Origin: Pedobacter nutrimenti
Lineage (GTDB): Bacteria; Bacteroidota; Bacteroidia; Sphingobacteriales; Sphingobacteriaceae
NCBI RefSeq assembly: GCF_032678445.1
Contig: NZ_JAVTSQ010000009.1
Coordinates: forward strand, 122,346-154,345
Direction: 5' to 3'
DNA length: 32,000 nucleotides
Shown: positions 154-4,779 of the stretch, in pieces
How the letters are laid out: every line of letters starts with the position of its first letter
Numbering within the stretch: position 1 is the stretch's first letter
Translations under genes and position numbers: made by a program
Notes under the pieces: generated by a model
Told to the model about the DNA's origin: nothing
Database searches by the model: none
The model's input: the letters and a program-made list of their open reading frames with translations, nothing else

Positions 154-585
154 ATGAATTACGAAGAGTATTACAATGAGCTTTCAAGTGAACTGGAGAG
201 GTCTGCAAGTGTATTGAAAGAATACGATGATTTGGAAGCACATTTTATGAGCTCAACGCACAGCCGTGTCAGGTATGAATCTTATGTTTTAAGTTCTATG
301 CCAGTGGGAATTGTTGACATCGTCTATATCCTCACCTCCGGAACCATGACAGTAAGCTTTGATATGGAGCTGAAAAATACTCTTAAAAACAATACCAGGT
401 TGCAGTACACATTAGGCGTGAGCCGTCTGTTTGATAAAGAGAGAGTCAAGATATTAGGCATTTTCAAATCACTAACTGAAATTGCAAATGACGATGTGCT
501 CTTAAACATATTAAATGGGATCAGAAATGACCTTAGCAAAAATGAAGACAGGATTGTTAAGCTTAAGGAGCTTATGAGAAGGTAA
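154..585 (+). CDS. Hypothetical protein, 143 aa, with helical charged N- and C-terminal segments
   Basis: This is the only long ORF here. An A-rich leader precedes it and a clear intrinsic terminator follows at 615-650. I recognise no motifs. Confidence 0.55.
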   Translation: MNYEEYYNELSSELERSASVLKEYDDLEAHFMSSTHSRVRYESYVLSSMPVGIVDIVYILTSGTMTVSFDMELKNTLKNNTRLQYTLGVSRLFDKERVKILGIFKSLTEIANDDVLLNILNGIRNDLSKNEDRIVKLKELMRR

Positions 586-724: not shown

Positions 725-2491
725 ATGTCGGTAAAAAAAGAAACTTCATTACGTTTAAATAAGAAACTGGTCACAATGCCCAAGACTAAAACGGGCATTA
801 ATGGATTAGATGAAATTACCCTGGGTGGTTTGCCTTCTGGCAGGCCAACCCTGATTTGTGGTGGCCCTGGATGTGGGAAAACATTATTCTCTCTTGAGTT
901 TCTAGTTCGTGGAGCCCAGGATTTCAATGAACCAGGTGTGTTTGTTGCATTTGAAGAAAAGGCTGATGAACTGCTGATGAACGTGGCATCCCTGGGCTTT
1001 GACCTGGAAAAATTACAAAGAGAAAAAAAGATCAGGATGGATTATATCCATATTGACAAAACTGAAATTGAAGAAACAGGTGAATATGATCTGGAAGGGC
1101 TTTTTATCCGACTTGGTTATGCTATAGACAGCATTGGCGCTAAGAGGGTCGTATTAGACACGATAGAGAACCTCTTTGCCGGATTGTCTAACGAAGGGAT
1201 ACTGAGGGCCGAACTCCGCAGGTTGTTCCGGTGGCTAAAGGATAAAGGAGTAACCGCGATTGTAACTGGTGAAAAGGGAAAGGAAAGTCTAACCAGGCAG
1301 GGCTTGGAAGAATATGTTTCTGACTGTGTGATCCTACTCGATCACAGGGTAATTAACCAGATTTCGACCAGACGACTGAGAGTTGTGAAGTATAGAGGTT
1401 CGCTGCATGGCACTAATGAATATCCGTTTTTAATAGATCAGGATGGGATTTCGGTCTTGCCGGTAACCTCATTAACTTTAGATAAACCTGTTTCGTCAGA
1501 GACCATCTCTTCGGGGATCGGTGCACTGGACGAAATGTTTCCTATGGGGGGCTTTTACAAAGGAAGCAGCATCCTGGTTTCGGGAACGGCTGGTACAGGA
1601 AAGACCAGTATTGCGGCCAGCTTTGTAAATCATGCCTGCTTAAAAAAAGACAAATGCTTGTTTTTTGCATTCGAAGAATCGCCTGCGCAGATTGTCCGTA
1701 ACATGAAATCCATAGGCATGAACTTGCAGGAACATATCGATAATGGCCTGCTTCAGTTTTATGCTTCGCGTCCAACTATGTTTGGACTGGAGATGCATCT
1801 GGTTGCAATTCACAAGGCCATCCAGAAATTTAAACCTAAAGTTGTGGTGCTGGATCCAATCACAAATCTGATCACAGTAGGCAGCTTTAGCGACGTTAAG
1901 GCGATGTTGGTGCGGTTAATTGATTTCTTGCAAAACGAACAGATTACGGTGATGTTTACGGCATTAACTTTAAATACAGTTATAAGTGAACAGACAGATG
2001 ACGGTGTTTCTTCGCTGGTAGATGCCTGGTTGTATATTAAAGATATTGAACTTAATGGTGAGCGCAACCGGGGATTATACATTATGAAATCACGGGGAAT
2101 GCACCATTCCAATCAAGTGCGGGAATTTCTGATCACTAGCGGGGGGCTGGAACTGGTTGATGTTTATCTTGGCCCGGAAGGTATATTGACCGGTTCGGCA
2201 CGGGAAGCGCAAATGTTATTGGAAGAAACAGGACAAATTTTACATAGCCATGCGGTAAGCCGCAAGGACAGGGAACTGCTCCGTAAACGTAAAATACTGG
2301 AAGCAAAGATTGAGAATTTAAAATCTGAATTTGAATCGGCCGAAGAAGAACTGAACAAGATTTACACGGAGGAGGAGATTAAAAGGAGAGTAATGGAAGA
2401 AAACCGGCAAAAGATCACAGAAATCAGAAAAACCAGTGGAAAGTCTTTAGCTGACAAGCAACAGAATAATAAGTCAAAAACAAACAAATAG
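725..2491 (+). CDS. kaiC: KaiC homolog: double RecA/DnaB-like ATPase (CI+CII) with an extended C-terminus, 588 aa
   Basis: There are two Walker A motifs (GGPGCGKT and GTAGTGKT) and two catalytic Glu pairs (VAFEEK and FAFEES). Two Walker B-like motifs are present (VVLDTIENL and [10 protein letters not shown]). KaiC-type motifs [16 protein letters not shown] and [17 protein letters not shown] are present. The phosphosite region [11 protein letters not shown] aligns to EITDSHISTITD of S. elongatus KaiC. Confidence 0.95.
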
Positions 2492-2772
2492 TGGAAGAGA
2501 GATATGAACTGAGGCTGTATGTAGCTGGTAAGACCCAGAAATCAGTCACTGCACTTAGCAATCTGAAGAAGTATTGCGAAGAACATTTAAGCGGTCAGTA
2601 TTCCATTGAGGTGATCGATCTTCTTCTTCAGCCGCAACTGGCAGAAGGGGATCAGATCCTGGCTATTCCTACCTTGGTGAAGAAAGTCCCTGAACCGGTC
2701 AGGAAAATTATTGGAGATCTCTCCAATAAAGAAAAAGTATTAGTTGGATTAGATATCCGTCCCAGATCTTAA
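2491..2772 (+). CDS. kaiB: KaiB, canonical-looking, 93 aa
   Basis: The motifs [19 protein letters not shown] and [20 protein letters not shown] closely match cyanobacterial KaiB ([37 protein letters not shown]). The GTG start at 2491 shares 1 nt with the kaiC TAG stop (TAGTG). Confidence 0.93.
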
Positions 2773-2789
2773 TTGTATTACGAAGGATT

Positions 2790-3077
2790 ATGAATATAGA
2801 AGAGGAGCCAGTTTATATACTCAGGTTATTTGTTGCAGGAGCTTCTTCTAAATCGATTCGGGCAATCAATAACCTGCAGGGAATTTTAGACGAAAAGCTT
2901 AAGAATAAATATGAAATGGAAATCATTGATGTGCATCAGCAGCCTGAAATTGTAAAAAGAGATGATGTTGTTGCTGTTCCCATGCTCATAAAGAAATCTC
3001 CAGGACCGGAAAGGCGTCTTGTTGGAGATATGTCAGATACTCAGCGTGTACTGAGAGGATTAGGACTATTGGTATAA
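2790..3077 (+). CDS. kaiB: Second, more divergent KaiB paralog, 95 aa
   Basis: The motifs LRLFVAGASSKS, AVPMLIK and PERRLVGDMSDTQRVLRGLG follow the KaiB pattern. The gene lies 17 nt after the first kaiB and 4 nt before the histidine kinase. Confidence 0.85.
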   Translation: MNIEEEPVYILRLFVAGASSKSIRAINNLQGILDEKLKNKYEMEIIDVHQQPEIVKRDDVVAVPMLIKKSPGPERRLVGDMSDTQRVLRGLGLLV

Positions 3078-3081
3078 AATT

Positions 3082-4779
3082 TTGCTTTTGGAGAATTTAA
3101 AGACACTTAAGGAATTACAGGACCAATTACGGGAAACTCAGTTTCAATTGGAAGAAGCGAAAGATATGCTCGAGGCCATACGCCTGGGGGAAGTGGACGC
3201 GCTGGTTCTTAAAGGAAACGATGGGCATCAGATCTATACGCTGAAAAGTGCCGATCAGACCTACAGGATCTTTATTGAACAGATGACCGAAGGGGCAATT
3301 ACCCTGAATGAGAAAGGGAATATTCTGTATTGTAATTCCCGTTTTGCAGGATTGGTTGGTCTCCCCCTGGAAAAAGTAACTGGTCGGCCACTCGTGAAAT
3401 TTATAGATAAAAAAGACTTGAAGAAGTATGAAGTACTCATTGAAGGGGCGTGGGGAAATACAATAAAGGGTGAATTGAAAATACGTACCTCTACTGGCGA
3501 AAAAATCTGTGTACAATTGTCTTTGAAAATGCTGGACCTGGAAGAGGGGCTATCCATGAGCATCATTATTACTGATCTGACAGACCAAAAGAAGAACGAA
3601 AAATTATTAAAGCAAAGGAACAAACAACTAAAAAGAGCGGAGCGCATCGCAAATGATCTGAATGTTAATCTGGAGAAGACGGTTAAAGAAAGAACGGCAG
3701 AGCTCCGCCGAAATCAGGAGCAACTTGGCAGGATTCTGGAAACCATGGCCGAAGGCGTTGGCATAACCGATGTAGAAGGGAAATTGCTTTATGCTAATCC
3801 TATGGCACAAAAAATATTAGGATTAAAGCCAGGTGAAATTACAAAAGGAATATATGATAATCCTCAATGGCAAAACCTTCGTTTAGACGGTAGTTTTTTA
3901 CCAGAGGTTGAACACCCGATGCATCTGTCAATGAAAACAGGGAAGCCTGTTTATGATTTTGAAATTGGTATCCGACCTCCCGGCAGGGAAACCTTTTACA
4001 TCTCTATTAATGCTGCTCCCATTCATGATGAGGAAGGAAATATTACGGGGAGTATTGGCACATTTATGGACGTAACACATCGACGGATGGCTATCCGGCA
4101 GAAGGATGATTTCATTAGTGTGGCCAGTCATGAACTTAAAACGCCTATCACCAGTCTTAAGGCTTCTCTTCAATTGCTGAACCGCTTAAAAGATAAGAAT
4201 GAAATTTCCTCCAGTAATATGGTTCCTCTGCTCATTCAGCAGGCCAATAAGAGCATGGACAAAGTGACGGCTTTAATTAATGACCTTTTGAATGCGGGGA
4301 AATATACGGAAGGGCAGCTCCACCTCAACAAGACCCGCTTCAGTTTGGTGAAAATGATTAGAGAGAGCCTGCAGCATCTTCATGCTTCAGATGGCTATAA
4401 AATAAATGTAACGGGTGACGAAGATATCCTGGTTTTTGCAGATGCCGACCGGATTGAGCAAGTGGTCGTAAATTTTGTAAATAATGCAGTTAAATATGCT
4501 CCTGAATCCAAATTCATCTTTGTCTTGATATCAGGAACGGACCAGGAATCAAAACTGGAAGTTAGAGATGAAGGAAACGGAATTGCTGAAGAGAAACTCC
4601 CTTATATCTTTGAAAGATATTACCGTGTAGATGAAAGTGGCAGTCAATATTCTGGACTAGGGCTTGGGCTGTATATTTCGGCAGGAATTATCAAGAAGCA
4701 TGGAGGGAAAATCGGTGTGGAGAGTAAACCGGGAAAGGGAAGCACATTTTGGTTTAGTCTTCCCGCGGAGCAATTGTAA
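3082..4779 (+). CDS. Cytoplasmic sensor histidine kinase: coiled coil, PAS, coiled coil, PAS, HisKA, HATPase_c
   Basis: The H-box is SVASHELKTPITSL. ATPase boxes are NNAVKYAP (N), DEGNGI (G1) and GLGLGLYI/GKGSTFWF (G2). Two PAS-like cores are visible (MTEGAITLNEKGNILYCN and MAEGVGITDVEGKLLYAN). No TM helix is seen. The TTG start at 3082 is the first start-like codon after an in-frame TAG at 3061; the alternative start is ATG 3166. Confidence 0.9.
   Translation: MLLENLKTLKELQDQLRETQFQLEEAKDMLEAIRLGEVDALVLKGNDGHQIYTLKSADQTYRIFIEQMTEGAITLNEKGNILYCNSRFAGLVGLPLEKVTGRPLVKFIDKKDLKKYEVLIEGAWGNTIKGELKIRTSTGEKICVQLSLKMLDLEEGLSMSIIITDLTDQKKNEKLLKQRNKQLKRAERIANDLNVNLEKTVKERTAELRRNQEQLGRILETMAEGVGITDVEGKLLYANPMAQKILGLKPGEITKGIYDNPQWQNLRLDGSFLPEVEHPMHLSMKTGKPVYDFEIGIRPPGRETFYISINAAPIHDEEGNITGSIGTFMDVTHRRMAIRQKDDFISVASHELKTPITSLKASLQLLNRLKDKNEISSSNMVPLLIQQANKSMDKVTALINDLLNAGKYTEGQLHLNKTRFSLVKMIRESLQHLHASDGYKINVTGDEDILVFADADRIEQVVVNFVNNAVKYAPESKFIFVLISGTDQESKLEVRDEGNGIAEEKLPYIFERYYRVDESGSQYSGLGLGLYISAGIIKKHGGKIGVESKPGKGSTFWFSLPAEQL

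Follow-up and report, generated by a model that had tools for sequence, protein, structure and literature searches.

The window analyzed here is a 32,000-nucleotide stretch of the genome of Pedobacter nutrimenti in which four genes, kaiC, kaiB, a second kaiB and a PAS kinase gene, lie tightly packed on the same (plus) strand. The first of these (positions 725..2491) encodes a putative KaiC2-type double-domain ATPase/autokinase of 588 amino acids; public databases label such proteins KaiC, and the label on this one is 'circadian clock protein KaiC'. The KaiC domain (PF06745) is found twice by Pfam in the open reading frame, and the general KaiC model of NCBIfam (NF006799) returns 732 bits (cut-off 408), with the KaiC of Rhodobacter sphaeroides (KaiC-RS, 8dba) as the best match in the PDB. 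The cyanobacterial KaiC equivalog model, TIGR02655, returns 349.6 bits, under its cut-off of 546.25. Both ATPase halves have intact catalytic motifs: the CI Walker A motif, GPGCGKT, spans residues 47-53 (863..883) and the CII Walker A motif, GTAGTGKT, residues 287-294 (1583..1606), and in 46 relatives K52/T53 and K293/T294 are invariant, as are the catalytic pairs E77/E78 (CI) and E317/E318 (CII).

The kaiB gene (2491..2772; 93 aa; PF07689, E 2e-28) begins with a GTG codon that overlaps the kaiC stop by 1 nt, and the best PDB match of its product is KaiB-RS (8fwj_M, E 1e-28). It is followed by a second, more divergent kaiB paralogue (2790..3077; 95 aa; PF07689, E 2e-25), whose product is 43% identical to the first KaiB, and then by a gene for a histidine kinase with the Pfam domain order PAS-PAS-HisKA-HATPase (3082..4779), the probable output of the module. 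This cassette is present in 79 of the 79 assessable Bacteroidota loci, all of which have both KaiB copies, and the kinase gene comes after both kaiB genes in every locus with enough downstream sequence. We also considered the open reading frame upstream of kaiC (154-585) as a cassette member and rejected it because it is present only in the closest relative. In other members of the KaiC clade (P0183, P0186 and P0214), the C-terminal coil leads directly into fused PAS domains. The genome encodes a single double-domain KaiC and two adjacent KaiBs, and the KaiA model (PF07688) has no match in its 6.9 Mb (99.97% complete), with the control detected in S. elongatus.

In GTDB species genomes, over 560 loci encode relatives of this KaiC, the nearest being in Pedobacter (93%). 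The best 80 of these more than 560 loci belong to the Sphingobacteriaceae (Pedobacter, Mucilaginibacter, Daejeonella), the Chitinophagaceae (Terrimonas, Taibaiella, Flavisolibacter, Segetibacter) and the Cytophagales (Spirosoma, Fibrella).

The phosphosite segment, T424-D-D-G-V-S429-S430, is encoded at 1994..2014, within a stretch of residues 423-433 at nucleotides 1991-2023; the codons of T424, S429 and S430 start at nucleotides 1994, 2009 and 2012. Aligned by HMMER with S. elongatus KaiC (chain 4ijm; matched segment 'hsiTDshiSTitD'), the segment runs without a gap, and T424, S429 and S430 thus occupy the T426, S431 and T432 positions, exactly as the earlier note had proposed from the sequence, residues and coordinates included. 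S429 and S430 likewise fall on S413 and S414 of KaiC-RS, both of which are Glu in the S413E/S414E phosphomimetic (8FWI). Each of the three residues is invariant in the 46 relatives. Based on these alignments, S429 and S430 occupy the autophosphorylation positions.

The relationship to KaiC-RS extends well beyond this segment. KaiC-RS is the best solved-structure match (8DBA; also 8FWI and the coil-deleted 8DB3) at E 4e-188 and approximately 50% identity, and query residues 19-554 align with KaiC-RS chain positions 6-540, interrupted by only one gap (1 residue), so that the alignment runs through the crystallographically observed KaiC-RS coiled coil. The top 17 Foldseek matches are all KaiC-RS chains (50-55% identity), and those to full-length dodecamer chains span 530-565 columns. 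An allosteric network of eight residues has been described in KaiC-RS, namely S413, S414, W419, V421, Y436, L438, V449 and R450 (PMC10076222). Seven of these map to S429, S430, W435, Y452, M454, V465 and R466 of the query, six being identical and M454 a conservative replacement; V421 was not mapped because the paper's Val421 misfits the printed KaiC-RS sequence. KaiC-RS (from Cereibacter; PDB 8DBA, 8FWI, 8FWJ, 8DB3) and the query share (i) the double KaiC domain and the aligned Ser-Ser phosphosites; (ii) the conserved hinge motif TG[ST]AR; (iii) a tail helix that is about 80 residues long and carries a heptad seam, in a post-REF extension of 114 residues in KaiC-RS and 120 in the query; and (iv) a setting with no KaiA and with kaiB directly downstream. 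They differ in that the query comes from a member of the Bacteroidota whereas KaiC-RS is alphaproteobacterial, and in that the query has a variable Lys-rich tip and two tandem KaiB genes where the KaiC-RS system has one KaiB.

The REF motif occupies residues 466-468, and F468 is followed by a further 120 residues, the number that the earlier note had counted; the charged stretch that it quoted begins at S512 (nucleotide 2258) and the reading frame ends at 2491. CII is joined to the tail helix by a hinge, the A-loop equivalent (residues 483-493; 2171..2203), which is gapless against KaiC-RS (LGEGGALTGTAR); the 15-residue hinge segment of the query aligns with 'LGEGGALTGTARKAE' of KaiC-RS. Beyond the hinge, AlphaFold2/DSSP predicts one continuous alpha-helix of 81 residues (491-571; 2195..2437), with pLDDT values of 55-82 across residues 510-560, and Foldseek aligns this helix with the KaiC-RS dodecamer chains. 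The model is of modest quality (mean pLDDT 66, pTM 0.43) and was used for secondary structure only. It is a monomer prediction from a 46-sequence alignment and is silent on oligomeric state; its TM-scores against KaiC-RS are low because of domain and helix orientation.

Within the helix lies a conserved coiled-coil heptad core (residues 511-546; 2255..2362), with V511, L518, R522, L525, I529, L532, F536, A539, L543 and I546 at the a/d positions. From 518 to 546 the a/d seam is unbroken (L, R, L, I, L, F, A, L, I), and hydrophobic residues take 8 of its 9 a/d positions vs 3 of the 20 other positions (Fisher p = 3e-4, query). The hydrophobic periodicity of the query at 3.5 residues exceeds that of 99% of shuffles. 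For the family mean profile the periodicity is marginal (p ~0.04; best period 6.6, or nearly a heptad), the signal being dominated by charged residues, and the a/d enrichment test and per-column conservation are the more informative measures. Together with the predicted helix, these results bear out the proposal of a heptad-like tail. To gauge tail-to-tail packing by proxy, we also looked for antiparallel charge complementarity. In the query, residues 513-526 form a basic block and residues 534-551 an acidic one, the best symmetry centre lying near residue 530; the complementarity was not significant (p = 0.33), and we dropped the proxy, the symmetry being equalled by 33% of shuffles and the pattern not being conserved across the clade.

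The distal part of the helix (residues 547-568; 2363..2428) is less regular and ends with I564 and R568. Core positions R522, E550, K553 and N560 are polar and the distal third of the tail is rich in E, K and R. After it comes a basic K/N/Q-rich tip (residues 569-588; 2429..2488), which the earlier note had mentioned as the end of the tail. The tip is variable among relatives, whose ends differ in length and sequence ('GNSRPNPEK', 'GKNKK', 'KKKK' and similar), and it is predicted to be disordered, with pLDDT below 50 from residue 570 and residues 572-588 non-helical in the AlphaFold2 model. Most likely, the tip is a disordered appendage without a specific role.

Long tails of this kind turned out to be the rule among related proteins. 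A HMMER search run exhaustively over 1.84 billion representatives recovered many KaiCs of 550-600 aa that are 34-56% identical to the query and whose alignments extend to query residues 545-580. In the 102 representatives that cover CII, tails of about 92-139 residues after REF are the rule, and they accompany both Ser-Ser and Ser-Thr site pairs. Since the tails of 71 diverse clade representatives measure about 95-139 residues and that of KaiC-RS 114, 120 is a typical tail length; the suggestion of an even longer tail is right to the extent of six residues over KaiC-RS, but the value lies inside the clade range. As expected of a KaiC2-type protein, the query tail exceeds that of KaiC1/KaiC3 by about 50 residues or more.

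Column by column, conservation in the tail is far from uniform. Across 71 diverse representatives with a full tail, which are 34-56% identical to the query, query positions 511, 518, 525, 529, 532, 536, 543, 546 and 564 tend to be hydrophobic; the a/d positions of the heptad core are 60-85% hydrophobic and position 564 is hydrophobic in 81%. Nearly invariant among them are G490 (70/71), R493 (63/71) and R568 (70/71). In the 46 Bacteroidota sequences the majority-residue frequency is 0.85 for the CII domain, 0.86 for the coil (511-547), 0.67 for the distal helix (548-568) and 0.22 for the tip (569-588), where not one column is invariant. Judged by these frequencies, purifying selection on the coil is as strong as on CII. 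The C-terminal ~100 residues make up a single long, predicted amphipathic helix, and its heptad core has been kept throughout the clade.

The query tail alone gave no significant match against PDB sequences, KaiC-RS being reached only at E 2.3, and pairwise sequence search therefore cannot show tail homology; the identity between query and KaiC-RS in the coil is 11/58 (19%). Tail-only profiles of the 46 Bacteroidota sequences and of the 71 representatives did match (95.8% probability, E 7e-9) and were in register, a comparison to be read with the fact that coiled-coil profiles can match by composition alone. Tail homology is shown instead by the clade-wide column conservation and this profile-profile comparison.

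On the evidence given above, we consider the query KaiC most probably an orthologue of the KaiC2-type, KaiA-independent KaiC typified by KaiC-RS. The earlier note had arrived at a KaiA-independent design but attributed it to the coil, which was said to replace KaiA in R. sphaeroides KaiC by holding the A-loop in its activating state. The first part stands: given the homology to KaiC-RS and a genome without KaiA, a KaiA-independent KaiBC design is the right family. The second part is contradicted by work on KaiC-RS, in which deletion of the coil left nucleotide exchange (19.1 vs 18.0 per h) and phosphorylation (5.5 vs 7.4 per h) wild-type-like while dephosphorylation was nearly abolished and the protein fell apart on KaiB binding (PMC10076222). 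As exchange and autophosphorylation proceed at wild-type rates in the coil-deleted protein, the coil is not a KaiA substitute; in KaiC-RS both occur without KaiA due to an intrinsically extended A-loop (PMC10076222).

By homology with KaiC-RS, the probable model is that the six tails of one hexamer interdigitate with the six of another to form a tail-to-tail dodecamer with a 12-helix bundle. The A-loop would be permanently extended, allowing nucleotide exchange and autophosphorylation without KaiA, and it is because of this extension that KaiA would not be needed for autophosphorylation. Phosphorylation of the serines would switch the partners and the register of the coiled coil, in line with the two alternative coil registers and the 12-helix bundle seen in KaiC-RS (PMC10076222), and through this phosphorylation-linked register shift the coil would speed dephosphorylation, so that in the model the ATP/ADP ratio would drive the system as an hourglass. 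The coil would also stabilise the rings while KaiB loosens CI. The last 30 residues of KaiC-RS are disordered except in the phosphomimetic state, in which they order against the opposite CII ring (PMC10076222). The distal helix up to R568 is probably the rough counterpart of this element, and in the phosphorylated protein it would probably dock on the CII ring opposite.

An alternative view of the tail is that, instead of being only a zipper, it serves mainly as a docking helix for a lineage-specific partner, with the second KaiB or the PAS kinase reading or setting the phosphorylation-dependent register of the coil, which in Bacteroidota would then be a docking or signal-transfer surface. What speaks for such a role is that the 46 Bacteroidota sequences show no variation at 11 solvent-facing (non a/d) residues of the 511-547 segment (K514, D515, E517, R520, E526, E537, S538, E542, N544, K545 and Y547), that the coil is conserved as strongly as the catalytic CII domain, that 79 of 79 loci carry the kaiC-kaiB-kaiB'-kinase cassette as a fixed unit, and that PAS domains are found fused to the coil end in P0183, P0186 and P0214. 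However, two registers and a 12-helix bundle, as in KaiC-RS, already constrain many non-core positions, and KaiB-RS binds CI rather than the coil (PMC10076222). Moreover, with an overall identity of 74-81%, the 46 sequences are closely related, and surface invariance among them is for this reason weak evidence. We regard a docking role of this sort as unlikely and favor the coiled coil of the KaiC-RS type.

Still less likely, in our view, is a tail that takes no part in oligomerisation, be it a charged single alpha-helix or a spacer that is largely disordered. Its composition is indeed very rich in E, K and R, chiefly at 547-569, several a/d positions are polar and the tail on its own has no significant structural relative by sequence. 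Against this, the hydrophobic seam at 511-546 is uninterrupted and conserved clade-wide, crystal and cryo-EM structures show the tail of the homologue KaiC-RS as a coiled coil, and the coil is under strong purifying selection, unlike the variable tip. Part of the E/K/R-rich distal third could be a single stable helix and not part of a bundle.

The possibility that we are dealing with a canonical circadian KaiC (a KaiC1-like component of a self-sustained oscillator) with mere extra C-terminal residues, as the database label and the retention of T424 at the T426 position might suggest, is the most improbable of all in view of the TIGR02655 score (350 bits, below 546), the Ser-Ser in place of Ser-Thr sites, the lack of KaiA in a 99.97% complete genome and an identity of 50% to KaiC-RS as against ~36% to S. 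elongatus KaiC. The latter (KaiC1; PDB 1TF7, 2GBL) does share with the query the CI/CII architecture, the Walker A motifs, the catalytic EE pairs, the Thr and Ser at T426 and S431 and the REF motif. It differs in Thr432, which is Ser in the query, in belonging to a system with KaiA, in the identity given above (Foldseek) and in a tail after REF that is ~70 residues shorter, the figure of ~49 residues for S. elongatus coming from the earlier note and a hand count.

There is precedent for a KaiC of the KaiC-RS type, both in this phylum and with this tail. Schmelling et al. (2017) described one Bacteroidetes group with solely KaiB2/KaiC2-like proteins and reported two serines in KaiC2 homologues (PMC5520375); this Bacteroidetes KaiC2/KaiB2 group, known from data sets only, is the same family as the query KaiC. 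Pitsawong et al. (Nature 2023) described a large clade in which the C-terminal tail is lengthened by ~50 aa and kaiC2 with two Ser sites predominates, and their supplementary alignment and tree include Mucilaginibacter polytrichastri (WP_074489239.1) and Daejeonella (Pedobacter) lutea (WP_079703163.1), as well as Pedobacter sp. V48, Chitinophaga pinensis, Spirosoma linguale and others (PMC10076222). Over the aligned part, the query KaiC shares 77-78% identity with the KaiCs of the M. polytrichastri and D. lutea loci in our set (L021 and L015), and the published alignment displays the same tail pattern as the query, e.g. '...HAIGVKDSELLRRRKILESKIDSLKSEFESTE..AELNKSYIEEAIKKDVMEQNRE...'. With Bacteroidetes in the 2017 paper and KaiCs of Sphingobacteriaceae and Chitinophagaceae with the same tail in the 2023 alignment and tree, the idea of a distant phylum as a new host has to be given up. 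According to a 2026 preprint, a reconstructed ancestor of this lineage was, by SAXS, already a dumbbell-shaped dodecamer. Our search of the literature for experimental work on Bacteroidota KaiC or tandem KaiB found nothing relevant.

The query KaiC is a typical member of a published clade and presents no new design. Its phosphosite pattern and coiled-coil tail are published hallmarks of the KaiC2/KaiC-RS clade and have, as such, little discovery value. The locus is nevertheless a pointer to a strongly conserved, putatively hourglass-type KaiBC module in non-photosynthetic soil Bacteroidota. For testing a Kai timer in a heterotroph, the conservation map of the tail (the 511-546 core, the TG[ST]AR hinge and the terminal Arg) would be useful, and the fixed tandem KaiB pair would be a second aid.

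The tandem pair of kaiB genes that lies 3' of kaiC (window 2491-3077, + strand) appears to be a constant feature of these loci. Among the best 80 of more than 560 related loci (L008-L087), both copies were found 3' of kaiC in 79 of the 79 Bacteroidota loci, a count that takes in only those with sufficient sequence downstream. The first KaiB copy is well conserved across L008-L087 (75-96% identity to the first KaiB of the window), whereas the second is far freer to vary, with identities to the second KaiB of the window that range from 44 to 94% and fall mostly between 50 and 70%. KaiB is borne by 15 of the 81 genomes in our sample of the family Sphingobacteriaceae, the genome of the window included; with that genome left out, two adjacent copies were present in 12 of the 14. 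In the literature open to searching, we came across no account of such a fixed pair. A 143-aa ORF 5' of kaiC (window 154-585) gave no match in Pfam and, within the best 80 of the more than 560 related loci, was seen only in the closest Pedobacter relative; it therefore lies outside the conserved kai cassette.

Within KaiC itself, the Arg that closes the tail helix (R568; window 2426-2428, + strand) is conserved throughout the long-tail clade. An Arg occupies this position in 70/71 diverse clade representatives, usually within the motif R-x-[AG]-D, and in all 46 Bacteroidota sequences. R568 likely makes contact with the CII ring of the opposite hexamer; an equivalent Arg is not mentioned in those parts of Pitsawong et al. 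2023 (PMC10076222) that we examined.

Some long-tail KaiC proteins carry further domains. In P0183, P0186 and P0214 one to three PAS domains are fused right behind the coiled coil, while in P0189 a response-regulator receiver domain precedes CI. In the window, the PAS kinase is encoded by a separate downstream gene. By Rosetta-stone logic, the PAS fusions connect the end of the coil with signalling through PAS domains. A heptad-like look is also apparent in the first ~40 residues of the PAS kinase (LENLKTLKELQDQLRETQFQLEEAKDMLEAIRL; window 3082-3210, + strand).

On one contig whose label assigns it to a Janthinobacterium lividum MAG (L084) there is a kaiC-kaiB-kaiB'-kinase cassette of the Bacteroidota type, with 74% identity, which is probably the result of a binning error rather than of transfer. 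Across the family, the kai cassette is patchily distributed, being present in 15/81 sampled genomes and 10/37 genera and missing from all three further genomes that were sampled from the genus of the window. Such patchiness suggests that the cassette has been subject to repeated loss or lateral transfer.
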